Below are positions 26,215-49,496 of a stretch of DNA of 64,000 nt, piece by piece. The stretch is taken from contig JAKLIV010000003.1 of NCBI GenBank assembly GCA_022709405.1, forward strand, positions 1,883 through 65,882, in the 5' to 3' direction. The translations under genes were made by a program, and so were the position numbers. This stretch comes from Spirochaetota bacterium. GTDB taxonomy: Bacteria > Spirochaetota > UBA4802 > UBA5550. The notes under the pieces were generated by a model. The model did not search any database. It was not told the origin of the DNA and saw nothing but the letters and a program-made list of their open reading frames with translations. How positions within the stretch are numbered: the stretch's first letter is position 1; each line of letters starts with the position of its first letter.

Positions 26215-26231
26215 CTGTGTCCATCTGCGGT

Positions 26232-26430
26232 TAAATCTTTTTTAACTCCGCGCCCTCCGGGTCTCCGTGGTGAATCTTCTCCCTGTCATCACCATATCCG
26301 GCCTTACACTCCATCACCTTGGCGCTCTTTGCGCCGTTGCCTGAAAACCTTTTATCTTTTACTCCGAGTTCGCCGCGTCGCCGCGTGAACATTTTCTCCT
26401 CATAATTCATGGTTTAATCCGTGTCCCATC
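26232..26430 (+). repeat. Interspersed ~200-bp repeat element, copy A
   Basis: ...CCTCCGGGTCTCCGTGGTGAATCTTCTCCCTGTCATCACCATATCCGGCCTTACACTCCAT...TTTGCGCCGTTGCCTGAAAACCTTTTATCTTTTACTCCG...CGCGTGAACATTTTCTCCTCATAATTCATGGTTTAATCCGTG aligns along its length with 27743..27940. Confidence 0.85.
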
Positions 26431-27496: not shown

Positions 27497-27571
27497 GACT
27501 TCTGTTTCCAGAAAAAGGATTTTCGTATACCGGCAGTCGCTGTCCAGTCCCGGTATTTCGAATCTCCTTTT

Positions 27572-27742
27572 AAAAATCTATTCTTTCTCTGCGGCCTCCG
27601 GGTCTCCGTGGTGAATCTTCTACTTGTTATCAACCGGTTTTTTCCCGTCTTTGTCAAATATATTATCTTTTACTTCCAGTTCTTTGCGCCGCTGCGTGAA
27701 AACCCTTTATCTTTTACTCCGCGTGCTTCGCGCCTCCGCGTG
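27572..27742 (+). repeat. Interspersed repeat element, copy B1 (divergent middle), in tandem with B2
   Basis: AAAAATCTATTCTTTCTCTGCGGCCTCCGGGTCTCCGTGGTGAATCTTCT...CTTTGCGCCGCTGCGTGAAAACCCTTTATCTTTTACTCCGCG...CCTCCGCGTG. Confidence 0.75.
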
Positions 27743-27940
27743 AAAAATCTATTCTTCCTCTGTGTCCTCCGGGTCTCCGTGGTGAATCTTCTCCCTGTCA
27801 TCACCATATCTGACCTTACACTCTATGACCATTGCGTTCTTCGCGCCGTTGCGTGAATATCTTTTATCTTTTTCTCTGCGATCTCTGCGAACCGGCATGA
27901 ACATTTTTTCCTCATTATTCACGGTTTAATCCGTGCCCAA
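27743..27940 (+). repeat. Interspersed repeat element, copy B2
   Basis: AAAAATCTATTCTTCCTCTGTGTCCTCCGGGTCTCCGTGGTGAATCTTCTCCCTGTCATCACCATATCTGACCTTACACTCTAT...GCGCCGTTGCGTGAATATCTTTTATC...ATGAACATTTTTTCCTCATTATTCACGGTTTAATCCGTG. Confidence 0.85.
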
Positions 27941-27946
27941 TTCCTC

Positions 27947-29356: not shown

Positions 29357-29398
29357 TCATCTATGTAAAATGCTTTTCAGCGATCTCAGCGCATCCGT

Positions 29399-29520
29399 AA
29401 AAAATCTATTCTTCCTCCGCGGCCTCCGGGTCTCCGTGGTGAATCTTCTCCCTGTCATCACCATATCTGGCCTCACATTCTATCTTCCTTGGCGTTCTTT
29501 GCACCACTGCGTGAAAATTT
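29399..29520 (+). repeat. Interspersed repeat element, copy C (5' two-thirds)
   Basis: AAAAAATCTATTCTTCCTCCGCGGCCTCCGGGTCTCCGTGGTGAATCTTCTCCCTGTCATCACCATATCTGGCCTCACATTCTAT...TTTGCACCACTGCGTGAAAATTT. It ends at the stop codon of the 29520..30698 gene. Confidence 0.85.
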
Positions 29521-33525: not shown

Positions 33526-35205
33526 TCACCGGGAGCCCGTGATCCTGACGATTTCCATTTTTTTTATCGACCCATCCGCGCCGATTGTGTAGCGGTGAAA
33601 TATTCCCTGCGAATACTCTTCCCGGCTGTAAAAATGATACTCCCTGACCGGCCTCCACGGGAAATTGCGGCTCAGCAGAGACGCGCCTGCAAGATGGGCG
33701 TCGGGGATCATTCCGATTGAATCATAAATTGTGGGCGCGATATCGTATATGGTCGCCCTGGCCTCCGACATGGCCATCGCTCCCGGTGCAGTCGACCGAG
33801 CGGGTTTTATCAGCATGAGAGGCCTGGAGCGCGCCCGGCTCCATTCAGGGCCGAAACAGTCTTTTTTCTCCACCGAAACAAGGGAGTTTCCGCTGATCCT
33901 GAAGCCCGACCCATGATCGCCGTGTATCAGGATCAGCGAACGATCAAACCGCCCCGTCTCTTTCAGCAAATCGATGAACTGCCTTACCAGATATACGGCG
34001 CACATAGTCTGCTCGAGTGGCCCTGTCAGCCTGCCCTTGACGTAATCGCCGTTTTCATCGAGGACATACGGGAAATGCGGCAGGATCAGATGTAGAAATA
34101 CGTAACGGCTGCTTTTTCTTTCGGAACGCTCCCTTTCCATGAACTTCCTGAAGCTGAGCATCGACGCCACGGGAGCCTCGTCCGGCAGCAGTTTATCGCT
34201 TGAAAGCTGCCTGAAATAATGGTCGGGGATCAAGCGCTTTGAAAAAAATTTTGGAAGAGATGAATACATCCAGCACGATGCGAACAGCATCCGGAGGCTT
34301 GTCTGTGACGCCGCATCCATGTGCTTTTTATGATGGTACGTGACGTCAAACGGAGATGGAGAGCGCCTGGGGTATGTGCCGTGAATATATCCTGTCAGGG
34401 TGTATCCGGCTTCGCGAAGAGCATGCAGAAAAGACCGTTCTGTCATGAATGCCCCGCGGATATAATCGTCTGGCGGCATGTCATAGTTGTATCTCATGCC
34501 GGAAAACAACGCTCCCATGGACATTTCCGTCCGGCCGAAGGGGGTCGTCGCATGAGGGAAAAAAACGAAGCCGGACAATGCCCCCCTGAGGTCTTCGTTG
34601 AGGCACGCTTCGAACATTTCGGTCTGCATCTCGTCAAGGACAATGTGATAGATGTTCGGCAGATCGCCTCTCGATGAAAGATGATTATTGGCGGCGGCCT
34701 CGTTTTTCACGCCGGGAACCACGTCCTTCAATGAATTGTCCGATGAACTGCTCCCGGCCAACACATACAGGCTTGATATGACAATGCAGGCCGAGAAGAT
34801 ACCGAATATCCTGAGAAGGCGATCCGTATCCCGCTTTCTCATGAGGAACCCGATCGCCAGGGATACTATAAAAACAAGCGCGAACAGGGACAGGGAAACA
34901 ACGAACCTCGTTTTCCCATCGGTCATTCTTGAATTGATTTCCGAATATAATATCCAGAGAGGACCCAGGCAAAGACAGGAAATAAACAAAACTTTTGCCG
35001 GAGAATACTTTGACATAAAAAAAAGAATTAATGTTATGCAGATAAAAAATCCTGCGGCAAGAAAAACATACAGGGCGGGTTCGAACCGCCCCATGAAATA
35101 TTCACCGTTCCGCTGGATAAGATTCAGCGAGGGGAAGATAAAGATGACAAAAGAGGTTCCCACGCAGGCGGAAATCGCATAAAATGCTTTCGTATATTTT
35201 GACAT
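33526..35205 (-). CDS. Membrane-anchored alkaline-phosphatase-superfamily transferase (LtaS/EptA/OpgB-like: phosphoglycerol, phosphoethanolamine or similar)
   Basis: About 5 N-terminal TM helices, then 'PNIYHIVLDEMQTE', 'FLHLILPHFPYVLDENGDY' and 'LILIHGDHGSG'. Confidence 0.65.
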   Translation of the reverse strand: MSKYTKAFYAISACVGTSFVIFIFPSLNLIQRNGEYFMGRFEPALYVFLAAGFFICITLILFFMSKYSPAKVLFISCLCLGPLWILYSEINSRMTDGKTRFVVSLSLFALVFIVSLAIGFLMRKRDTDRLLRIFGIFSACIVISSLYVLAGSSSSDNSLKDVVPGVKNEAAANNHLSSRGDLPNIYHIVLDEMQTEMFEACLNEDLRGALSGFVFFPHATTPFGRTEMSMGALFSGMRYNYDMPPDDYIRGAFMTERSFLHALREAGYTLTGYIHGTYPRRSPSPFDVTYHHKKHMDAASQTSLRMLFASCWMYSSLPKFFSKRLIPDHYFRQLSSDKLLPDEAPVASMLSFRKFMERERSERKSSRYVFLHLILPHFPYVLDENGDYVKGRLTGPLEQTMCAVYLVRQFIDLLKETGRFDRSLILIHGDHGSGFRISGNSLVSVEKKDCFGPEWSRARSRPLMLIKPARSTAPGAMAMSEARATIYDIAPTIYDSIGMIPDAHLAGASLLSRNFPWRPVREYHFYSREEYSQGIFHRYTIGADGSIKKMEIVRITGSR

Positions 35206-35275: not shown

Positions 35276-37678
35276 TCAATAATATATAGACAGGGATTTT
35301 TCCCTGAGTTCAACCAGCAACGGGTGGTTCCGGCAATTGGCGATCGCGGCCCTGATCCTGTCGTCGCCATGTTTTCGGGTAAGGGCCACCCGGCCGGCCT
35401 TCATCAATCCGATTCTTACATCGTCGTCTTTGTAACTCTTCGATTTCGAATGGAACACGAAGGTGTTTGTCGCGATGACGAGGTCAAACCCGGCGTCCGC
35501 GGCCCTCAGGCAGTAATCGTTTTCCTCAGAGTATCCTTTCGGGAACGACTCCTCGTCGAAATATCCGATGCGGTCGATGACCTCCCGCCGTATGCCGATG
35601 CAGAACCCGTGAACGAGGGGCACCGATGGATACAGGCCGTATCGGGACCATTTTTCACAGCAGGAGTCAACCTCTTCGACGGTGAGTCCCGGAGGCAGTG
35701 GATTCACCGCTGTCTGGGTCGCGGTGCTTTTTATCTGCGGTATCGACTGATATCCCGCGGCGTTCGACATCGGGCCGACAATGCCCGTCGTCGGATTCGA
35801 AAAGACCGCATCCGCCATTTTCAGCGACCAGTCTGCCGGAACGATCGTGTCGCTGTTGAGAAGAATCACCAGCCGGGCCTTACTGTTCTTCAATCCGATA
35901 TTCGCCGATCTGGTGTACCCCAGGGCCTGTTCGTTTCTGAAAAGCCTGGTCCCGGGATTTTTCCGTATGAATTCATCAAGATATTTTCGTGTCCGTTCAT
36001 CGGAGCAATCATCCACGATTATCAGCGTGTGTCCCGCGCGCATGGACGAGAAAACGGAATCAAGGCACCTGATCGTATCCTCGAGAGCGTTGTGCACGCA
36101 TACCACGATATCAATGGAAAAACCGGCAACCCTGCCGGCAAGTTCTTTTCGGTGCTCATAAAACGCGTCCAGGGACAGCGGATCGGCAACTTCCGATACG
36201 GGTCCGAGATCGCCGTCAATCGCGGCCCTGTTACGCTTCCCGTGCCTGAACAGCGCGAAATCATAGTGGTTTCGCAGTGAATAGTTTTCTTCAAACAGCG
36301 AAAACCATTTTAGTCCAGAGTCTTTGAGCGCGTACATGACGCTGAGCTGATCGCGCCTGCTGTAGCGCTCGATTTCGTTCCACCACGATCCGAAGGCCTG
36401 CTGCACGACCGGGTCATGATGGAGACAGACGAAAATATTCGTTTCAATGAGCCCGGCATCCGGCATAAAGCCGAGGCCCCTGTATCTTTCCATCTGCTTA
36501 TCGATGACATCATTATCATCTTTGCCGAGCTCCTTGCAGCTTTCCGCTTCGACAAACACGCAATTGCGCCGCGGATGCGCGACACAGCCGATTTTTTCCC
36601 CTGATGATTTCAATCGATTCACGAATTTTTTCAGATCGCCGCGAATCAGCACATTAGCGTCAATCCATATCGAAACGTCATGTTCGGGAAAGTATTTATG
36701 GGGATGGGTCTTCACGTAGCGGGCGATTTTCACCGGGTCGGTATTGTAGTAATCGACGGGACGGATTTCGAAAACGCCGAACCCGTCCCTGGGCCTGTCT
36801 GAAAAGCACACGTAATCCATATCAGGATCGATCACTTCCGGGACGATGAGGCTGTCATATTCACCGATAATCGTCGTATACACGACGATATGGTTTTTTT
36901 TCTTCAGCCGCCGGTAGCTCTTTACACCTTCAATAATATCTGCCGCACAACGCGGCGGATATGGTCTTTCGCGGTAGTACAATGAAATATTATTACAATC
37001 TTTTTGTACTGCGCATTCGTGCAGGCCGAATCCGCGTGACGCAATAAACGAGGCGATCAGCTCCCCGGGATTTTGCGCCGTGCCGGAATCCTGACCGGTG
37101 TGAGGCATATTGAACCCATCGGCAAGAAAGGGCCTGATCGCGTCAACGCACAACCACAGCATGAAGCCGCCGGCATCTATCTGTCCTCCCTGCGGATAGA
37201 CGAGGCCGGCTTTTTTGTTCCTGATGAGCCGATATGCAGCCTCTGCGGTTTTCGGCGAGCCGGCAAGATCGAAGAGCGCGTTTCTCCAGGATGACCGCAT
37301 GTCGGGTTCAGGCCCCGGGGTCCTGATAGCCAGCAGCATGTCGCAGGACAGTATCTCTGCGGCGAAAACAGTCAGGCATCCAGGCGCTCCGAGAGAGGAG
37401 CCTTCCTGACATTTGCAGATTACCGACCGTGCATGATGAAGCTTCTTTTCAAAATATTCCCGTGTCGGCTGTATGGACAGGGGATTCCGGGCAAGGACCA
37501 TGACCCTGGACACGTATGCGATGTTGCGCACGTGGTGGATGATCTCATCGGAAAAGCTTTCATCCTCGAGCAGGACCAACACGCCGACTTTTTTTCTGAC
37601 CACCCGCTTGATGAATGCAATCATGTTTCTTCTTGCGGCTGCGATCCGTATTCGGAATTTTTCTATGAGCCCTGTCAT
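35276..37678 (-). CDS. Three-module glycosyltransferase (RgpF-like N-terminal region + DUF616/TOD1-like domain + C-terminal GT2)
   Basis: Middle: 'IVVYTTIIGEYDSL..DYVCFSD', 'VSIWIDANVLI' and 'SRRDQLSVMYAL' (DUF616 pattern). C-terminus: 'FSIDIVVCVHNALEDTIRCLDSV..LIIVDDCSDERT..LGYTRSANIG..ILLNSDTIV'. Confidence 0.65.
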   Translation of the reverse strand: MTGLIEKFRIRIAAARRNMIAFIKRVVRKKVGVLVLLEDESFSDEIIHHVRNIAYVSRVMVLARNPLSIQPTREYFEKKLHHARSVICKCQEGSSLGAPGCLTVFAAEILSCDMLLAIRTPGPEPDMRSSWRNALFDLAGSPKTAEAAYRLIRNKKAGLVYPQGGQIDAGGFMLWLCVDAIRPFLADGFNMPHTGQDSGTAQNPGELIASFIASRGFGLHECAVQKDCNNISLYYRERPYPPRCAADIIEGVKSYRRLKKKNHIVVYTTIIGEYDSLIVPEVIDPDMDYVCFSDRPRDGFGVFEIRPVDYYNTDPVKIARYVKTHPHKYFPEHDVSIWIDANVLIRGDLKKFVNRLKSSGEKIGCVAHPRRNCVFVEAESCKELGKDDNDVIDKQMERYRGLGFMPDAGLIETNIFVCLHHDPVVQQAFGSWWNEIERYSRRDQLSVMYALKDSGLKWFSLFEENYSLRNHYDFALFRHGKRNRAAIDGDLGPVSEVADPLSLDAFYEHRKELAGRVAGFSIDIVVCVHNALEDTIRCLDSVFSSMRAGHTLIIVDDCSDERTRKYLDEFIRKNPGTRLFRNEQALGYTRSANIGLKNSKARLVILLNSDTIVPADWSLKMADAVFSNPTTGIVGPMSNAAGYQSIPQIKSTATQTAVNPLPPGLTVEEVDSCCEKWSRYGLYPSVPLVHGFCIGIRREVIDRIGYFDEESFPKGYSEENDYCLRAADAGFDLVIATNTFVFHSKSKSYKDDDVRIGLMKAGRVALTRKHGDDRIRAAIANCRNHPLLVELREKSLSIYY

Positions 37679-38454: not shown

Positions 38455-39528
38455 CTATTTTTTGATTGAGGAGCGCCTTTTATCCAGCAACTTCTTGATA
38501 ATCAGGCCCAATACCGTTTTCTTTGACAATTCATATGCTTTGATTGGAATTTTCACAATCGGAAAAGAACTCAGAAGCTCATAATCGGATTTCAGCTTCG
38601 CAATTTTTTCCTTTCTCTCTTGATCCCTTTTGCGAAGGTCCCCGACCAGTTCATTCACCCTTTTCAATTGCTGCTGCATCCCGTCATTTGAAAAAAATTT
38701 CAACGACGCCATGAAATCGCGGCTTGCTTTATCAAGCTCGGCCTGGATTTCCTTCTCCCTGGACGCATCATAGTTTGCGGAAACGTCGGTGAACAGCGAT
38801 ATTATTGCGTTGATGAAACCCGGCGCAGTTTCAATTCGGCCGCTATCGATCGAATGATGCTTCAATTCGCTGACGATGAATTTTTCGATCTCATCTTTTT
38901 TCCCGCGCAGGGTTTCCGAAAAATCAAGCCCGAGATTCGTCTCAATTGACGATATCACTCCGAACGGATTCTTCACAAAGGCGTCATACGATATGAAAAC
39001 TCTCCTGTGGTTTCTGCTGTATCTTTCAGCATCGACTTCATGAATCATCCAGAGAACGACCGATTGTTCCGTTGAATATTTATTCCGTGCGCCGATCGAA
39101 GCCGCAATTTCAAGAGGATTCCTCACCGGAAGAATCACGCATATATCGACTCCCATCCCGGCAAGAACCTTCTCCCAGAAAGGGAACAGCCTGCAGATCC
39201 GCGGGTCTTTGATTCCAAAAACGGGGACATCTCCATATTCGTCGTCGATTATCTCCCGCGCTTCCATATACAGATCGTTAAGCCCCTTGTCGTTCTCCCA
39301 GCCGGGCGTGAAAGAAAACGTGCTGTCCCATGCTGACTTAAGCCGCGGAAGCAACTTATTTTCATTGAAAATCTGGACCTTCAGGTTTTCATAATAACCT
39401 GTCGGATTGTTCGGATTCGGAGGCATCAGGGTTTTCCCCATGAAGACCCCCAATCTGTCAAGAACGCCGGCAAGCGCCGAAGTGCCGCTGCGGTGCATGC
39501 CCAGTATCATGATGCATTTCTGATTCAT
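38455..39528 (-). CDS. Sulfotransferase-family protein with C-terminal coiled-coil and basic amphipathic tail
   Basis: The PAPS 5'-phosphosulfate-binding loop is 'IMILGMHRSGTSALAGVL', followed by 'GIKDPRICRLFPFW'. The C-terminus reads 'QQQLKRVNELVGDLRKRDQERKEKIAKLKSDYELL' and then 'LSKKTVLGLIIKKLLDKRRSSIKK'. There is a 4-nt overlap with wzt copy 2. Confidence 0.65.
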   Translation of the reverse strand: MNQKCIMILGMHRSGTSALAGVLDRLGVFMGKTLMPPNPNNPTGYYENLKVQIFNENKLLPRLKSAWDSTFSFTPGWENDKGLNDLYMEAREIIDDEYGDVPVFGIKDPRICRLFPFWEKVLAGMGVDICVILPVRNPLEIAASIGARNKYSTEQSVVLWMIHEVDAERYSRNHRRVFISYDAFVKNPFGVISSIETNLGLDFSETLRGKKDEIEKFIVSELKHHSIDSGRIETAPGFINAIISLFTDVSANYDASREKEIQAELDKASRDFMASLKFFSNDGMQQQLKRVNELVGDLRKRDQERKEKIAKLKSDYELLSSFPIVKIPIKAYELSKKTVLGLIIKKLLDKRRSSIKK

Positions 39529-40976
39529 TTTTTCGGATCCTCGGGATTTACAATCGGAACGATTACCGGATCCTGGTAAAAAAAGAGCTGGCCTGTGTAT
39601 ATATCATCGTATTCCCGCTGGACCTTGAATACCAGGCTGTCGACGATTCTGTTCAAATAAACGATCTCGCCATTTACACGGCCCCTGACGCCGGCGTTTA
39701 TATAATAAAGCCCCTGAAAAAAATTGCATGAAAAACGCCATTCGATCCGGAAAACTGAACCCTTTGCGACATAGGGGATGTACGTGTTGACTCCTGGAGT
39801 GACGCCGCCTCCAAGCTGCACTCCCCTTTCGGTTTTGAAGAGCATGCCGAACGAGACGTCTTCGGCGTCACAATTGAATGTCGCCCTATACGAAAGAACG
39901 TACTTTTCATCGAGAAGGAGCATGTTCACCTGCTCATCAGATGAGGTGGTCAGTTTCACATCCGAGATGTCAACATCATAGCTTTTATATTCAACTGTTG
40001 TCCTGGGTTTCATTTCTGGGATAAAATATGAGCGGGGAGCCAGGTGAGATGCGCCGCCTTTCACCGTGGGCGAACAGTCCGGTCCGGAACCGGCACCCGG
40101 TTCCAATTCCTGTAAGGAATAATCCTCATCGATTGAAGTCTTGTATTCCTTGCTCAAGTTCAATGCAATTATTTCGTTTCTTGACGACTCAATTCTTTCC
40201 TTCGGAGAGTAGAGATACTTTTGATACAGCGCCGTTACCAGTTTTGTCGGTCCTTCAAAGATAATCTCTCCGCGGTCAAGAAGTATCGCGCGAGTGCAGA
40301 TTTCATTTATGGTATGGGCCGAGTGGCTCACGAACAGGATAGTCTTGCCGCTTGAGAAAAATTGCTCCATCCTGGCATAGCATTTCCGCCTGAACAGCTC
40401 GTCGCCGACTGAAAGAACCTCATCCAGGATGAGAATATCCGGATCGACATTCACCGACACCGAAAAAGCGAGCCGCGCTTTCATGCCGCTTGAGTATGTC
40501 TTCAGCGGCTGGTCGATGAAATCCCCGAGCTCGGAGAATTCGATAATATCGCCGATCACGTCATCTATTTCTTTTCTTCTGTATCCGAGGAGCGCGCTGT
40601 AAAAATAAATGTTGTCGAGGCCCGTGAATTCCGGATTGAAACCGGATCCAAGCTCAAGAAGCGCCACGATATTTCCTTCTGTGCGGACATCGCCCCTGGT
40701 TGGCGTCAATACTCCTGACACAACCTCCAGCAGGGTCGACTTGCCGGATCCGTTTTTACCAACGATGCCCAGTATTTCACCACTGTGAACATCGAGACTG
40801 ATGTTCTTTAACGCGTAAAAATCCTTGTGATGGCTTTTATTGCGGGGATCAAGGGCTTCCTTAACGCGATCGAGCCTGCTGCCGTACAAATTGTATTTTT
40901 TACTGATACCCTTGAGCTGTATTACCGGTTCACTCATATTGATATGTGATTTCCCCAAATGGTTATGCTTATCCAT
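39525..40976 (-). CDS. wzt: Wzt/TagH-type polysaccharide ABC-transporter ATPase with a distinct C-terminal carbohydrate-binding-like domain (copy 2)
   Basis: 'GIVGKNGSGKSTLLEV', 'LLELGSGFNPEFTGLDNIYF', 'YSSGMKARLAFS' and 'ILILDEVLSVGD'. The NBD is about 70% identical by eye to copy 1, while the C-terminal ~200 aa are unrelated in sequence. Confidence 0.9.
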   Translation of the reverse strand: MDKHNHLGKSHINMSEPVIQLKGISKKYNLYGSRLDRVKEALDPRNKSHHKDFYALKNISLDVHSGEILGIVGKNGSGKSTLLEVVSGVLTPTRGDVRTEGNIVALLELGSGFNPEFTGLDNIYFYSALLGYRRKEIDDVIGDIIEFSELGDFIDQPLKTYSSGMKARLAFSVSVNVDPDILILDEVLSVGDELFRRKCYARMEQFFSSGKTILFVSHSAHTINEICTRAILLDRGEIIFEGPTKLVTALYQKYLYSPKERIESSRNEIIALNLSKEYKTSIDEDYSLQELEPGAGSGPDCSPTVKGGASHLAPRSYFIPEMKPRTTVEYKSYDVDISDVKLTTSSDEQVNMLLLDEKYVLSYRATFNCDAEDVSFGMLFKTERGVQLGGGVTPGVNTYIPYVAKGSVFRIEWRFSCNFFQGLYYINAGVRGRVNGEIVYLNRIVDSLVFKVQREYDDIYTGQLFFYQDPVIVPIVNPEDPKK

Positions 40977-43220
40977 TTATCTTGTCTCGGCTCTTTTTTC
41001 CAGTACGATATAGTCCCGGTTTTTGAATACCGGCCTGAATCTGTTTTTGCCGTATGTATCGCCCGGTTTTTTCCGGTCAGCCATAGTTTTATCAACGACA
41101 AGATGAAAATCAAACATTTTATTCAGAGATTCCCATTGAACCTCGTTTATCTCACCCTGATAATAGAGCTCATGGCATTTCTCGATGCAGAGGCCCATGA
41201 ACCACTGCTTGTTGTATGTATAGGTGCCAATAACAATCATAGATCGTGAAACCGGGGTTACCAAGCCATCAATGATCATTGGAGCCATCCACGATACTGG
41301 ATCAGGCAGCATAGCACTGACTTTGTCGAGATCCCTCTCATTCCTGTATTTCTGGATGAACTCGATCACCTCTCTTTCAGGCAGCGGGATTCGTGAATAA
41401 TTCGATATCCTGACAATGCTTTCAGGGTAGGCTTTCGAGGAGTTGGCCAATAAAAAAAATCCGAGGACACATGCAACGGCAATGACAGAAATAAATCCAT
41501 TCATCGCTGAGCCGGCGTGTCTGAAGCGCTTTTGTGCCAGCAGACCATTCAGGCGGTTTCTGAATTCAATCAGCAGCCATATCATTATCAGATGAAAGGG
41601 GATGATGAATTCAATAAAACGCCAGGTCACGGCCCCGGATATTTTAGCCATAACAAGATACGTGGTCTTGAAAAAGAACAGCGTTGCAATTAAAATTGCC
41701 GGCCCGATGAAATACCACCGGATCATCTTATCCCTGACAAGAACCGCAGCAAGGGGGATTGCAGACAAAACGAAAATTTTCACCGGGCTCAAATAAAAGA
41801 ATTCAAACCTTCGTTTAAAACCCCTGCCGGGATTGTTGAATTTTAAAAAATCCATGACTTCGGGGAAAACAAAGTAAACAGCAATTATCATCAATATAAA
41901 AACGATCAGGACCAGAACCAGCAGCTTTACCGTTTTCGATACCGATATCCGGCCCATCCCGCCGATAAAAATGAACGCACACGGTATGCAGACCTGGAAC
42001 AACCCGAACGGGTGGATGCATACAGTAGCGAATGACAAAATCAAAAAAAGGGCGAGGTTCTTGTTCCTTTTTTCTCTGACATACTCAAGAAACGATCCGA
42101 GCGCAAGAGGGACAAATATGAAGTTTACAATCGATTTCGGCTGATGAAGCCTCATGGTAAAAAAATTTGATAAAGATTTATGATAATCATTCGATTTCAG
42201 AGCAATCAGCATAAACAGAATTAATGCCAGCAATGCATTCGTTTTATTCTTGAATATCTTCAGAAAAAAATAGTACAGAGCGGAGAAGCTCAGCAGATAC
42301 AGAAAAGGATAGAAAAGATACTGCATCAATTCAACAGGCGGTATCGATGTCAGCCTGCTTATGAAAGCGGCGAAAACTTCCCACATGACCAGAAAAAAAA
42401 CCGGGAGCTGATGCAGGGCGAGCCCGAGTGACGGTTCAAAAAGGTTCATCTGAGACGATGATTTCAGCTTCAGGGCTGTGCTTATATATGTGCAGTCGTC
42501 AGCGTCGAGATACGGATTGCAGAGAGCGCAATAAGAATACCAGGTTATTCCCGCAATAATCAGCAGCCAGAGAAACGCGCGGATTCCTTCTTGATGGGTT
42601 TCATGACTCACGCCATGGGAATTATTTTTATCGGTTAAGAAATACCAGGCGGCGAGGAACGTGTTCAGCGCCACCGCAACTGTGAGTATTATGCCTTCAG
42701 TTGCGGTAAACGCCCCCCCTCTGAAAAACACGGCTGCGATGAAGAGATCAAGCGCAATTACCAAGAAAAAAACAACCGATGCCATTCCCCGGTTATCGCC
42801 GTTTGAACATTCCGCCGGTTCAAGCGTCTCGTTCTCAATTATTTTTTCATACTCTTCAACAGAATCGCTTGATTTCCTTCTGTAAAAGTCGCGGGCCGCA
42901 TAACCGATAACGATGGCAAAAACGGCCGTCGCAATGTAGAAAAAATAATCGAATCTGCCATGAATTATCAGGAAGGGCGCTCCAATCGCCGTCAGCAAAC
43001 CGAAAGAAAGCCCGAAACCAAATGCAAGGTTTTCAAACGACATCGGCATATTTTTGCCGTTCAGCTTATCAAGAATGACAAAACCCGGAATTAAAAAGCA
43101 CACGAGGACGGGGATGAGTTTCAACGCATCCGTATTCCCGGTCAGGAATAAATACCATACGGATATAAATAATATGGTTGTAATGGCCCTGATTTTAATT
43201 GAAGAAGTAAGTCTATTCAT
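40977..43220 (-). CDS. Large polytopic membrane protein, GT-C-like (polyprenyl-phosphate-sugar-dependent glycosyltransferase candidate) with soluble C-terminal domain
   Basis: 747 aa with more than 12 hydrophobic segments and the acidic loop motif 'NPYLDADDCTYIS'. It lies downstream of a GT2 Pol-P-sugar synthase and a DUF2304-like gene. Its TAA stop directly abuts the ATG of wzt-2 (TAAATG). Confidence 0.5.
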   Translation of the reverse strand: MNRLTSSIKIRAITTILFISVWYLFLTGNTDALKLIPVLVCFLIPGFVILDKLNGKNMPMSFENLAFGFGLSFGLLTAIGAPFLIIHGRFDYFFYIATAVFAIVIGYAARDFYRRKSSDSVEEYEKIIENETLEPAECSNGDNRGMASVVFFLVIALDLFIAAVFFRGGAFTATEGIILTVAVALNTFLAAWYFLTDKNNSHGVSHETHQEGIRAFLWLLIIAGITWYSYCALCNPYLDADDCTYISTALKLKSSSQMNLFEPSLGLALHQLPVFFLVMWEVFAAFISRLTSIPPVELMQYLFYPFLYLLSFSALYYFFLKIFKNKTNALLALILFMLIALKSNDYHKSLSNFFTMRLHQPKSIVNFIFVPLALGSFLEYVREKRNKNLALFLILSFATVCIHPFGLFQVCIPCAFIFIGGMGRISVSKTVKLLVLVLIVFILMIIAVYFVFPEVMDFLKFNNPGRGFKRRFEFFYLSPVKIFVLSAIPLAAVLVRDKMIRWYFIGPAILIATLFFFKTTYLVMAKISGAVTWRFIEFIIPFHLIMIWLLIEFRNRLNGLLAQKRFRHAGSAMNGFISVIAVACVLGFFLLANSSKAYPESIVRISNYSRIPLPEREVIEFIQKYRNERDLDKVSAMLPDPVSWMAPMIIDGLVTPVSRSMIVIGTYTYNKQWFMGLCIEKCHELYYQGEINEVQWESLNKMFDFHLVVDKTMADRKKPGDTYGKNRFRPVFKNRDYIVLEKRAETR

Positions 43221-43645
43221 CCAGCAGCGGGCCGTTTTTTTTCTTTTAATGATTTGCCGGTCTTTTCTGAGTAATCAGAGCCCATGCGCAGTCTGTCGAG
43301 CTCCATCCGGAGCAGACCCTGTTCCTGTACCAGGATTTTTATCTGGTCCGACATTTTCGATATAACCATCGAATAATGGATCAGTATTGAAATTACGGCA
43401 AGGATCATGATCAGGAAAAGCGCCGCAGGTGGATATGCGATACCGATGAGAAAAGAGAAAAAAAACAGGACTTGTGACCAGATCGAAATGATCAGGAAAA
43501 CCACTCCGGAAAAAAGCCATAGCAGAGAGTACTCTTCCTTGATTTTTTTTCTATGAATCAGCACCAGAAGAACGGCGATATAAGCAATGCTGAAAAGGAT
43601 TCCGATCCATTGAACCCGATCACTATTGACGGTAAACCCGGTCAT
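43217..43645 (-). CDS. Small 4-TM membrane protein, DUF2304-like
   Basis: 142 aa with hydrophobic helices followed by a 'MVISKMSDQIKILVQEQGLLRMELDRL' coiled tail. Its position directly after a DPM1-like GT2 is typical of DUF2304. Confidence 0.5.
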   Translation of the reverse strand: MTGFTVNSDRVQWIGILFSIAYIAVLLVLIHRKKIKEEYSLLWLFSGVVFLIISIWSQVLFFFSFLIGIAYPPAALFLIMILAVISILIHYSMVISKMSDQIKILVQEQGLLRMELDRLRMGSDYSEKTGKSLKEKKRPAAG

Positions 43646-43649
43646 GCAG

Positions 43650-44360
43650 TCATTCCTCCTCCAGTCTCGGTCTCAGCGCGCACATGAAAATCGCCAGCAG
43701 AACCTTGACCATATAGTACATGGCTCTGAAAGCGGTTATCGACGAATCCCCTTCGGTCCTCTCCCTCATCCGGGTGAACACTTCAACCATCCGGAAACCA
43801 TTCCTGCCCAGCAGAATTATCGCTTCGGGCTCAGGGTAATCGCCGGGATAATTTTTTGCAAGAAAATGGATGGCCCTTTTATTGTACGCCCTGAAGCCCG
43901 ATGTGTTGTCGCAGATCCACTGCCTTACCAGAAGGGAATTGACTATCTTGAAAATCTTGATCCCGATCCTGCGGGCCAGGGTCGAACGATAGCCGTTATG
44001 TTTCTGGCAGAAACGCGATCCGATCACCACCTCTGCCTCATGGCGTTCGAGCGGCAACATCAGTTTCGATATCTCCTCAGCGACATGCTGGCCGTCGCCG
44101 TCGTACTGGAAAGCGATATCGTAGCCGTATTTTGCGGCGTATTTGAAACCTGTCTGGACCGCACCCCCGATACCGAGGTTACAGGGCAAATTGATCACCG
44201 TAGCATGGCCTGATTCAGCAGCGGCCTCGCCGGTTCTGTCGGTTGAAGCGTCATTTACGATTAAAATGTCTATGGATTCATCAAACGTAAAAATTTCATT
44301 TATTACGGAATTAATTACTTTTTCCTCATTGTAAGCAGGAATAATCGCGAGTTTTTTCAT
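43650..44360 (-). CDS. GT2 polyprenyl-phosphate sugar synthase (DPM1/GtrB/ArnC-like)
   Basis: 'KLAIIPAYNEEKVINSVINEI..DILIVNDASTDRT', 'NLGIGGAVQTGFKYA', 'FQYDGDGQH' and 'SGFRAYN'. Confidence 0.8.
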   Translation of the reverse strand: MKKLAIIPAYNEEKVINSVINEIFTFDESIDILIVNDASTDRTGEAAAESGHATVINLPCNLGIGGAVQTGFKYAAKYGYDIAFQYDGDGQHVAEEISKLMLPLERHEAEVVIGSRFCQKHNGYRSTLARRIGIKIFKIVNSLLVRQWICDNTSGFRAYNKRAIHFLAKNYPGDYPEPEAIILLGRNGFRMVEVFTRMRERTEGDSSITAFRAMYYMVKVLLAIFMCALRPRLEEE

Positions 44361-47405: not shown

Positions 47406-49496
47406 ATGATACAAAAAGCAAAAAAAATACTTGAAACCGATTATATTGCCTTCATTTTGATTATCTTCACTCTAACCGGATTTTCCATAGCTCAACCTTT
47501 ATTTGATCTTCTGTCAAAAAACGAAGTGTATTTTATCGCAAACGGCTTTTTGACTCATCAAATAATCATTCTTGTTATAGCGCTTAGTATTGTTATACCA
47601 TTAGCTCCGTCCTTATTGATTATATTTGCCTACCGCATTAATAAAAAAGCGGGCTCCGCATTTTTCACAGTGATGTGTTTTTCTCTTTTTGTTCTCATTA
47701 TTCTGCCCATTATAAATAAATTTTCCCGATCAGGATATCTGGAGATCGCTTTATCATGCATCATCAGTCTTTTTCCTGCATTTCTTCTTTATAACAAAAA
47801 CTCTTTTCTTAGAAAATTCCTGATATGGCTATCTCCTTCAATAATCATTTTCCCGATATTTTTTCTTTTTTTCTCCCCGGTAAATAAAATCATCATGCCA
47901 CAAAATTCATCTCCACAACTGAAGATAAAACACAATGATATTATCTCAAGTACCTCTTATCCGGATATTATATTCATCCTGTTTGACGAGATTTCTCTGT
48001 CTTACATGGTTGACGAAAGGAACAATATCGATAAAGAAAAATTTCCTCATTTCCATGAACTGTCAAAAACATCATACTGGATGAAAAATGCCAGTTCGGT
48101 GGCAAACCAAACCCACCAGGTAGTTCCCCCAATATTATCAGGCCGATATTATGAAAAAGACAAATACCCGGATTTAAAAAATTATCCAGTAAATCTTTTT
48201 TCATTATTCAATGGTACCCACAGATTAAATGTAACCGAAGTATGCTCGTCTCTCAGCCCAATATCGAATAGAAAGCTCGACATCACTACTCTTGTATACG
48301 ATATCTTAATAATTTACCTACACACAATTACTCCTGAAAACCTTTCGGACAATTTGCCATCAATCACCGATAATTGGAATAATTTTAGAAAAAATCCCAA
48401 TAAGAAGAAGCCAAATAATTCACCATCAAAAAAAATGGAAAAATTTTCTCAGATAGTAAAAAGCATTTTTAATCGTGAAATCATTTTACACGATTTCATT
48501 GAGTCCTTAAAAAAAGAGGAAAAACCCGTCCTGCATTTTCTTCATCTTCTGATACCCCACAAGCCGTTAGTCTATCTGCCATCGGGGAAACGATATGATT
48601 TAGGATTGGGAGAACAAGAAATCATTCTTACAAAGAATCCGGAGCCGATGGAAAATATTTCCCAGCTCCAGCGATATCTGTTGCAACTTCAATATGCAGA
48701 CACCATTCTCGGTAAAATCATTGAAAGAATAAAACATCAGAATCTCTTTTCAAACAGCATCATAATTATCACATCTGATCATGGCACATCATTTTCATCC
48801 GGGAAGAATACCAGATATCTTGAAAATGACAACTATGCGGAAGTAATGTCAGTTCCTCTTTTTATTAAACTTCCACATCAGAACAATGGTACGGTTATCA
48901 ATGCAAATGTCGAATCGGTCGATATATTACCGAGTATACTTGACGCGATAGGCATAGATCCCCCTTCAACCATTGAAGGCCGTTCTTTTTTTGATGCTGG
49001 ATATCGTTCAAAAAAAATCTTGCGTCTCCAGAATAAAAAAGATTGTCTGAATATCAAAGCAACGGATTTCAACAGGAAAAAAATCGAATTTGTTCCCAAG
49101 TTTAGATCATATTTTGACAGCGGTTACGACGGCTTTTTCCGGATGGTAGCAAGCAAGACAATTATCAATAAGAACATTAATGGCATTGTTGAAGGCCAAT
49201 CAAATGAATATTCTTTAATTCTTAAAAACACTCTCAACTATAATAAAGTTGAGCTGAAATCACCTTTTAGGCCGTCATTCATTGCAGGCAAGATTGAAAG
49301 TAAAACAAATAATATCCGGAACATTGAACTCGCGGTTGCAATTAACGGCATAATCGGCGCGACTACATCGACTACAAAACAAGGGAACTTCACTTTTATG
49401 ATCAATGATGTGTTTTTTTGCGAAGGTTCCAACGAAATCAATTTTTACATCATGAATAATAAGAATCGAGAAAAAAGATTATTATTATTGCAATAA
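47406..49496 (+). CDS. Membrane-anchored alkaline-phosphatase-superfamily transferase (LtaS/EptA-like), AT-rich paralogue-by-function of 33526..35205
   Basis: N-terminal TM bundle, then 'PDIIFILFDEISLSY', 'HFLHLLIPHKPLVYLPSGKRYD' and 'IIIITSDHGTSF'. Confidence 0.65.
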   Translation: MIQKAKKILETDYIAFILIIFTLTGFSIAQPLFDLLSKNEVYFIANGFLTHQIIILVIALSIVIPLAPSLLIIFAYRINKKAGSAFFTVMCFSLFVLIILPIINKFSRSGYLEIALSCIISLFPAFLLYNKNSFLRKFLIWLSPSIIIFPIFFLFFSPVNKIIMPQNSSPQLKIKHNDIISSTSYPDIIFILFDEISLSYMVDERNNIDKEKFPHFHELSKTSYWMKNASSVANQTHQVVPPILSGRYYEKDKYPDLKNYPVNLFSLFNGTHRLNVTEVCSSLSPISNRKLDITTLVYDILIIYLHTITPENLSDNLPSITDNWNNFRKNPNKKKPNNSPSKKMEKFSQIVKSIFNREIILHDFIESLKKEEKPVLHFLHLLIPHKPLVYLPSGKRYDLGLGEQEIILTKNPEPMENISQLQRYLLQLQYADTILGKIIERIKHQNLFSNSIIIITSDHGTSFSSGKNTRYLENDNYAEVMSVPLFIKLPHQNNGTVINANVESVDILPSILDAIGIDPPSTIEGRSFFDAGYRSKKILRLQNKKDCLNIKATDFNRKKIEFVPKFRSYFDSGYDGFFRMVASKTIINKNINGIVEGQSNEYSLILKNTLNYNKVELKSPFRPSFIAGKIESKTNNIRNIELAVAINGIIGATTSTTKQGNFTFMINDVFFCEGSNEINFYIMNNKNREKRLLLLQ

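Follow-up and report, generated by a model that had tools for sequence, protein, structure and literature searches.

How the chains of an exported glycan could be marked as finished is the question raised by two overlapping genes in a stretch of 64,000 nucleotides from Spirochaetota bacterium (contig JAKLIV010000003.1), hereafter called the window. One of the genes, wzt-2, encodes the ATPase of an ATP-binding cassette (ABC) transporter with a C-terminal carbohydrate-binding module (CBM), and the other encodes a predicted sulfotransferase (Table 1). The initial annotation had suggested that this enzyme caps the glycan with sulfate and that the C-terminal domain of Wzt-2 reads the sulfated end. 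After comparison with related loci, we consider it moderately probable that the protein is a cytoplasmic sulfotransferase dependent on 3'-phosphoadenosine 5'-phosphosulfate (PAPS), acting as a chain terminator that installs a terminal, export-licensing sulfate on an ABC-transporter-dependent glycan. As far as sequence can tell, the earlier interpretation is supported by comparative genomics, and it survived each of three refutation tests run in silico.

Characterised terminators come in two formats, the stand-alone WbdD and the polymerase-fused WbbB and ORF6-O7. The coiled-coil terminators WbdD, WbbB, ORF7-O4 and ORF6-O7 were used as the comparison class. [quoted passage not shown]

Catalytic fold and architecture of the sulfotransferase

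All four sequence observations of the initial annotation (a PAPS-binding loop, a heptad-like segment, a terminal basic helix and a start codon overlapping the wzt-2 stop) were present, on the minus strand, which had been left unstated. The overlap reads tcat on the plus strand at 39525-39528, and a 4-nt overlap of the same ATGA type was found in a Spirochaetota orthologue locus (L081). A GAGGA Shine-Dalgarno sequence is located ~9 nt upstream of the ATG of the sulfotransferase gene. The gene belongs to a tightly packed minus-strand operon of eleven genes, in which neighbours overlap by up to 8 nt or are separated by up to 70 nt. The operon encodes, in order, a family 2 glycosyltransferase (GT2, 236 aa), a DUF2304 protein, a DUF6077 protein (747 aa), Wzt-2, the sulfotransferase, a 252-aa methyltransferase, an 800-aa TOD1/GT2 protein, an LtaS-like membrane protein, a Glyco_trans_1_2 glycosyltransferase-like protein with a methyltransferase domain, an unknown protein and a further GT2.

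The claim that the catalytic domain is a sulfotransferase passed marginally at the level of Pfam and clearly at the level of fold. The PF13469 match scored 27.9 bits against a cutoff of 27, and no NCBIfam model matched the protein. Among 86 relatives, PF13469 was matched by 32 and PF00685 by 21 (E <= 1e-3), with no match to any other catalytic family. Sequence searches of the PDB, with the single protein and with a profile of the 86 sequences, returned only coiled-coil noise and no solved sulfotransferase. An AlphaFold2 (AF2) model was built on the same 86 homologues (predicted local distance difference test (pLDDT) 91.4; predicted template modelling score (pTM) 0.84). When this model was compared with the PDB by Foldseek, ten matches were obtained at E <= 0.001, every one of them a PAPS-dependent sulfotransferase: TPST2 entries, a tick TPST, the OLS/CurM sulfotransferase domains and Stf9.

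The motifs that bind PAPS are conserved throughout the family. Within the 5'-phosphosulfate-binding (5'-PSB) loop ILGMHRSGTSALAG, the GMHRSGT(S) stretch is invariant or nearly so in the 86 homologues, the GMHRSGTS loop occupying residues 10-17. Residues invariant in all 86 are M11, H12, R13, G15, T16, N41, E47, K107, D108, P109, R136, S144, R148, E168 and R176, and they include the arginine and the serine of the 3'-phosphate-binding (3'-PB) motif. The motif IKDPR, together with E47, E168 and R176, is also among the conserved PAPS-binding elements of the family. The closest solved folds, TPST2 and the CurM/OLS domains, share with the enzyme a P-loop-like fold, a GxxRSGT(S/T) 5'-PSB loop (GVPRSGTTL in TPST2) and an Arg...Ser 3'-PB motif; unlike them it has no more than 12-17% identity in the alignments, at a TM-score of about 0.4-0.5, and their acceptors are proteins or polyketides. 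The methyltransferase and kinase domains of WbdD had no Pfam match in the window protein, whose fold is that of a sulfotransferase. The family is large, with 1801 homologues in a word-indexed search. It forms a genuine clade of sulfotransferases, poorly captured by existing models.

Relatives encoded beside wzt were translated and domain-scanned, and spacer lengths were taken from 37 proteins matching a strict motif pattern. They show an N-terminal sulfotransferase domain followed by a coiled coil and then an SxSWRxTxPLR motif, and many have a basic tail. Measured between the domain end and the motif, the coiled coil comprises 79-403 residues. After the motif, 11 of the 37 proteins stop within 20 residues and 26 continue for at least 300 residues, with C-terminal parts composed of WbsX, RgpF, GT2 and GT4 polymerase-type glycosyltransferases, with or without a methyltransferase. 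The sulfotransferase domain is consequently placed by the sequence order at the far end of the coil, and the glycosyltransferases of the fusions are C-terminal to the motif. Several coils consist of 14-residue (two-heptad) tandem repeats, present in 2 to 16 copies in homologous proteins, and such repeats therefore offer a simple route to an altered ruler length. Exact 14-residue repeats were seen in the coils of sulfotransferase-glycosyltransferase fusions, for example at L126:2449-7557 and L158:6507-11981.

The window protein is a minimal stand-alone form of this family. Conservation stops at an 'FYN'-type motif (KFFSND in the window protein), after which the spacer of variable length begins; in the window protein it covers residues 284-320. 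AF2 predicted helices at residues 255-279, 282-320 and 329-356. The heptad-like segment QQQLKRVNELVGDLRKRDQERKEKIAKLKSDYELL was located at residues 285-319, within the second of these, and hydrophobic residues occupy 9 of the 11 a/d heptad positions over residues 283-320. This helix corresponds, in shortened form, to the coiled-coil spacer that varies among the relatives. The terminal helix KKTVLGLIIKKLLDKRRSSIKK, residues 336-357, had been described as both basic and amphipathic. It is basic, with a net charge of +8 over the last 30 residues of the protein; its hydrophobic moment of 0.38 was equalled by 869 of 2000 shuffles (43%), and the amphipathicity is therefore not significant. The segment SSFPIVKIPIK, which precedes the basic helix, looks by eye like a degenerate SxSWRxTxPLR. 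The WbdD-like layout proposed earlier accordingly describes the family well and the window protein in part, as its coil comprises only ~38 residues and its tail lacks significant amphipathicity.

Pairing of the Wzt-2 module with sulfotransferases and PAPS supply

The nucleotide-binding domain (NBD) of Wzt-2 matched the 404-residue entry 8dku_A, deposited as 'ABC transporter' and taken by us to be Aquifex aeolicus Wzt, with an E value of 4e-71. A paralogue in the same window, Wzt-1, served as internal control. The two NBDs are 63% identical and the two CBMs have no similarity, which confirms that the C-terminal domain of Wzt-2 is divergent, as first described. In eight diverse loci, assigned to Sulfurimonas, Desulfonema, Desulfocapsaceae, Leptolyngbya, a Pseudomonadota metagenome-assembled genome (MAG), Thermodesulfobacteriota, Spirochaetota and an unclassified marine-biofilm MAG, sulfotransferase-linked Wzt proteins carry CBMs that share 26-71% identity with the Wzt-2 CBM. 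With respect to the NBD, Wzt-1 is closer to Wzt-2 (63-66% identity) than are the sulfotransferase-linked Wzt proteins (45-56%). Because Wzt-1 has the closer NBD and an unrelated CBM, the CBM tracks the sulfotransferase and not the ATPase.

In the clade defined by this CBM, 98-100% of the members have K381 and R443 conserved. Among solved structures, the one closest to the clade profile was the carbohydrate-binding domain (CBD) of Escherichia coli O9a Wzt (2R5O, E 9e-17), which reads an anionic methyl-phosphate cap. Next came three 'ABC transporter' entries, 8dky, 6o14 and 8dku, presumably the A. aeolicus CBD.

No relative was recovered when proteins were searched by word index with the CBM by itself. 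In a reverse test, metagenome contigs were scanned with CBM patterns alone, derived from a 4-sequence alignment, a 9-sequence alignment being too diverse. This gave 205 relatives, from which 80 loci with 35-72% identity were kept. The CBM clade was found to pair near-exclusively with sulfotransferases. At least 400 nt of downstream sequence was available in 72 loci, and in 59 of these the next gene on the same strand belonged to the window sulfotransferase family, usually after a gap of 2-100 nt; among the 55 loci that extend for 1200 nt or more, it did so in 45. Other sulfotransferase families followed wzt in three of the 13 loci that remain of the 72 (L097, L101 and L168), so that any sulfotransferase was found in 62 of the 72 (86%). 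The set is diverse: clustering at 90% identity gives 74 groups, and at 70% it gives 51, of which 41 are sulfotransferase-linked.

The reciprocal scan was carried out on GTDB species genomes with the GMHRSGTSA loop and gave at least 590 relatives, of which 80 loci were kept. Where a wzt was present it was nearly always upstream on the same strand, often overlapping the sulfotransferase gene. For the two closest relatives, P0002 and P0003 (~50% identical), the gene immediately follows a wzt whose CBM is of the Wzt-2 type. P0003 originates from a Spirochaetota MAG with a syntenic core of GT2, DUF2304, DUF6077, Wzt, sulfotransferase, methyltransferase and TOD1-GT, and the CBM in this locus is 71% identical to that of the window. 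Linkage of homologues to wzt, one of the points on which the sulfate-cap proposal could have failed, was accordingly observed both in these closest relatives and in the loci picked by CBM. In one of the 13 reverse-test loci that lack the window sulfotransferase family, a true soluble sulfatase (168 bits) is encoded right after the wzt of the CBM clade (L152:1554-2987), where it replaces the sulfotransferase.

The genes for PAPS synthesis, whose presence had been named as a check, were found just outside the window. By tblastn and hydropathy, no wzm was found in the 64-kb window, and the flanking DNA was taken from a 149-kb metagenome contig that carries the window at its positions 14732-78731. 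On the strand of the glycan operons, about 2.6 kb past the right end of the window, this contig carries an APS-kinase (adenosine 5'-phosphosulfate kinase) fragment, cysD, a cysN-cysC gene (597 aa), a cysQ-like gene and wzm. The string from the cysC fragment to wzm corresponds to L171:2147-7339, equivalent to about 66.6-71.9 kb. The encoded Wzm has 272 aa and is 38% identical to another Wzm; its gene lies ~26 kb from wzt-2 and ~41 kb from wzt-1. Since it was the only wzm found and there are two wzt genes, a single permease probably serves both Wzt-1 and Wzt-2.

Genes for PAPS supply were also found inside many related modules. APS kinase (PF01583, ~230 bits) typically occurs in the order wzm-cysC-wzt-sulfotransferase, CysN-CysC fusions occur as well, and APS-kinase homologues were identified in 21 loci. 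In L084 (2-1527), translational coupling links the sulfotransferase with a cysQ-type phosphatase for 3'-phosphoadenosine 5'-phosphate (PAP), and L040:4899-9048 contains two APS-kinase genes and cysQ between wzm and wzt. From these two loci, PAP recycling appears to be part of the module.

A putative sulfate cap and its alternatives

From these data we infer the following order of events. The glycan would be built on undecaprenyl diphosphate at the inner membrane face, the likely polymerase being the adjacent 800-aa TOD1/GT2 protein. The short helical spacer with its basic C-terminus may hold the sulfotransferase at the membrane or on the polymerase, where it would sulfate the non-reducing terminal sugar and elongation would stop. 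The Wzt-2 CBM would then recognise the sulfated end, and Wzm/Wzt-2 would export capped chains only. PAPS would be supplied by cysD/cysNC, and PAP would be cleared by cysQ. Such a system would work like the polymerase-terminator-CBM checkpoint of WbdD and WbbB, with the window protein as an analogue and not as a homologue of WbdD.

A close parallel is WbdD of E. coli O9a/O8 (= Klebsiella pneumoniae O3/O5), whose gene likewise directly follows wzt with the polymerase encoded separately, and which likewise has an N-terminal catalytic domain, a helical spacer and a C-terminal region. In WbdD the catalytic domain adds a small cap, the C-terminal region binds the membrane and the polymerase, and the cap is read by the Wzt CBM (PMC11231755, PMC3482155). 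The relationship of the sulfotransferase-linked CBM clade to the O9a CBD extends this parallel to the reader. Unlike WbdD, the window protein has a PAPS sulfotransferase fold in place of the kinase/methyltransferase, has no sequence homology to it, would add sulfate instead of methyl or methyl-phosphate, and has a spacer of ~38 residues as compared with the long ruler of WbdD. The fused relatives in L158, L126, L114 and L121 resemble WbbB of K. pneumoniae O12/Raoultella terrigena and ORF6 of K. pneumoniae O7 in combining a domain at the terminator position, a coil and C-terminal glycosyltransferases. They differ in having a sulfotransferase where WbbB and ORF6-O7 have a GT99 beta-Kdo transferase or a methyltransferase-kinase, and the window protein itself is without glycosyltransferase domains. 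In the ABC-dependent O-antigen cluster of Aeromonas salmonicida A450 (wzt-ORF19-wbbB), a gene with a sulfotransferase domain also directly follows wzt (PMC4483657). Unlike the window protein, ORF19 comprises 216 aa and has no coil; the O-antigen was reported to be free of sulfate, and ORF19 was given no function (PMC4483657).

Several findings weigh against a terminal sulfate. In the forward scan, a Wzt-type ATPase was located within 10 kb in only ~24 of the 80 family loci (~30%), the Wzt-2 type of CBM was present in only seven of the 80, several of the adjacent Wzt proteins have no CBM, and L173 uses a CBM-less KpsMT-type transporter. The CBM of the window is itself divergent in its clade, with a median identity of 33% and with S375 and N442 at positions where 83% of the members have R and H, respectively. 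The spacer of the window protein is short, its tail is not significantly amphipathic and its motif is degenerate. The methyltransferase encoded 21 nt downstream could also supply the cap or part of it.

In one alternative, the sulfotransferase would decorate internal repeats and give a sulfated polymer, with tethering near the polymerase serving efficiency; the CBM would then bind sulfated chains at large, or a different feature of the chain end. The occurrence of the family with CBM-less transporters fits this alternative, as do the two or three extra small sulfotransferases encoded in the related loci L083, L101 and L173. A precedent is the capsule cluster of Cobetia marina, in which cysNC, cysD and cysQ lie beside ABC-transporter genes, together with sulfotransferases, and the repeat unit of the capsule is sulfated (PMC11766843). 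The presence of PAPS-supply genes beside a transporter is thus no proof of a cap. The Cobetia system differs from that of the window in being of the KpsMT type and having no CBM, every repeat is sulfated (Rha2S), and no terminator role has been proposed for it (PMC11766843). At the far end of the coil, moreover, the sulfotransferase takes the position that the terminator has in every characterised system, a poor one for modifying every repeat; a single CBM clade is paired with sulfotransferases in 86% of the loci; and the extra small sulfotransferases, where present, could carry out the internal modification. We regard sulfation of internal repeats as unlikely, although it is the alternative to be taken most seriously.

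A second alternative assigns the export cap to the 252-aa methyltransferase dependent on S-adenosylmethionine (SAM), as methyl or as methyl plus sulfate, with the sulfotransferase adding part of the cap or none of it. The methyltransferase gene, close behind that of the sulfotransferase, overlaps the polymerase gene and is kept in the Spirochaetota orthologue, and a homologue follows the sulfotransferase-TOD1-GT fusion in L173. Fusions of sulfotransferase and methyltransferase (P0016, L114 and L139) also recall the kinase-plus-methyltransferase pair of WbdD. However, the 160 loci L001-L080 and L091-L170 contain no homologue of the methyltransferase, whereas the CBM clade is constantly accompanied by the sulfotransferase, and another homologue, P0141, was found in a locus without recognisable glycan-biosynthesis genes. 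The methyltransferase was for this reason rejected as a constant partner of the CBM clade, and a cap made by it is in our judgement improbable. That the protein is a degenerate scaffold, or acts on a lipid or protein, and is no working glycan sulfotransferase is highly improbable because the PAPS-binding residues are all invariant throughout the family; the Pfam score barely above threshold, the small share of relatives matching PF13469 and the missing sequence-level match to solved sulfotransferases would fit such a protein, whereas the fold matches are exclusively to sulfotransferases, the gene lies inside glycan operons, and related modules carry a dedicated APS kinase and cysQ.

Returning to the terminal sulfate, a broader proposition seems to us evenly balanced between right and wrong. 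It holds that sulfate is a widespread class of export-licensing cap, installed by sulfotransferases on coil rulers, read by a dedicated CBM clade related to that of O9a and supplied by APS kinase and cysQ encoded in the operon, and that in the present organism two Wzt proteins, one of the sulfate type and one probably of the methyl type, share a single Wzm co-transcribed with the PAPS pathway. If sulfate were confirmed, it would be a new cap chemistry for the polymerase-terminator-CBM checkpoint. The systems concerned would form a large group across many phyla, as judged from the 205 CBM-related metagenome stretches and the at least 590 sulfotransferase relatives in GTDB species genomes, and a function would be given to a sulfotransferase family mostly labelled 'hypothetical' in databases. 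Sulfated ends of glycans could then be predicted from sequence by a simple rule, the joint presence of CBM clade, sulfotransferase and cysC. For the glycoengineering of sulfated polysaccharides, the CBM could be of use as a naturally occurring reader of sulfated sugars, and the coil repeats as a tunable ruler.

A sulfate cap has possibly been predicted before, and no demonstration was found in the searchable literature. A census published in 2019 by Mann, Kimber and Whitfield may list sulfotransferases, and its abstract reportedly speaks of 'predicted new chemistries'. In our literature search, outside of which lay Mann et al. 2019 and the 2020 O-antigen review in the Journal of Biological Chemistry, no paper connected a sulfotransferase to chain termination, to WbdD or to a molecular ruler, and none of these terms occurs in a review on polysaccharide sulfotransferases from 2024.

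Neighbouring genes and other features of the window

Table 1. Position of the sulfotransferase, its parts and associated genes in the window.
Feature	Position	Strand	Basis
Sulfotransferase gene, candidate chain-terminating enzyme	38455..39528	-	Open reading frame (ORF), ATG start, 357 aa
Catalytic sulfotransferase domain, residues 1-281	38686..39528	-	Residues invariant in 86 homologues
5'-Phosphosulfate-binding loop ILGMHRSGTSALAG, residues 8-21	39466..39507	-	Family alignment
3'-Phosphate-binding motif VRNPLEIAAS, residues 135-144	39097..39126	-	R136 and S144 invariant, 8 residues apart
Heptad helix, residues 282-320 (39 residues)	38569..38685	-	Single AF2 helix, block-mean pLDDT 87-97
Basic C-terminal helix, residues 329-357	38458..38544	-	AF2 helix 329-356, low pLDDT (50-75)
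ATGA overlap, wzt-2 stop/sulfotransferase start	39525..39528	-	ATG 39528-39526, wzt-2 TGA 39527-39525
Wzt-2, ABC-transporter ATPase with C-terminal CBM (483 aa)	39525..40976	-	ABC_tran 3e-22, Wzt_C 1.8e-19
Wzt-2 CBM, residues 310-473	39558..40049	-	Clade profile 3e-59; same profile without match to Wzt-1
Wzt-1, paralogue, internal control	23974..25392	-	NBD 63% identical to Wzt-2; CBM unrelated
Class I SAM methyltransferase, 252 aa	37675..38433	-	21 nt downstream of sulfotransferase; Methyltransf_23 2e-4
TOD1/MUCI70 + GT2 protein, 800 aa, candidate polymerase	35276..37678	-	Pfam; 4-nt overlap with methyltransferase gene
GT2 (236 aa), DUF2304, DUF6077	40977..44360	-	Directly upstream of wzt-2, usual place of wzm

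The 252-aa methyltransferase has 58 homologues, labelled SAM-dependent methyltransferases in their sources. With respect to the candidate polymerase, the TOD1_MUCI70 and GT2 domain types are fused C-terminally to the sulfotransferase in L173, and a close relative of the 800-aa protein adjoins the sulfotransferase in L009. At L173:2194-16790, a sulfotransferase-TOD1-GT2-GT1 fusion of 1936 aa is encoded, with a 4-nt overlap to the homologue of the 252-aa methyltransferase. Two more small sulfotransferases follow as well, the fusion gene lies beside genes for the CBM-less KpsMT-type transporter and a Poly_export (Wza/KpsD-type) protein, and from this gene set the same enzymes also serve a capsule-type system.

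The three genes directly upstream of wzt-2 encode GT2, DUF2304 (four predicted transmembrane segments) and DUF6077 (16 segments). They are kept in the Spirochaetota orthologue (L081) and are not generally linked to the sulfotransferase family. As a set they resemble a three-component extracytoplasmic sugar-adding system (PMC11127046). DUF6077 was considered as a surrogate permease on the basis of a weak ABC2_membrane_3 match (0.0025), and this idea was rejected because a canonical wzm is located just outside the window and the three genes look like a glycosylation set. The 'Sulfatase' Pfam matches at 33526-35205 and 47406-49496 were considered as a sign of sulfate chemistry and set aside; both proteins have five N-terminal transmembrane segments and no CxPxR by eye, and they look like transferases of the LtaS/EptA type.

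A second capped-glycan system is likely encoded on the minus strand at 16132-25392, where wzt-1 is followed by a gene for an FkbM methyltransferase (22866-23963) and not by a sulfotransferase gene. The cluster further encodes a DegT aminotransferase, a formyltransferase, an ATP-grasp protein and an 807-aa GT2-coiled-coil-GT2 protein (16132-18555). The glycan handled by Wzt-1 is probably methyl-capped.

The guanine-plus-cytosine (GC) content is strongly mosaic between 20000 and 56000 of the window. It is 29-30% around the Wzt-1 cluster, rises to 50-58% at 29-38 kb, is ~47% where wzt-2 and the sulfotransferase gene lie, and falls to 33% at 47-51 kb, which suggests that the glycan region was assembled from several sources. 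Between the two glycan clusters, there are four copies of an intergenic repeat of 88-197 nt, with 69-92% identity to the reference copy, at 26227-26429, 27568-27655, 27739-27941 and 29396-29483. The copies flank toxin-antitoxin genes (AbiEii) and a gene for a DUF4143 ATPase, and two ORFs of 157 and 131 aa among the flanked genes look HepT/MntA-like by eye. An IS256-type transposase is encoded at 9511-10755.

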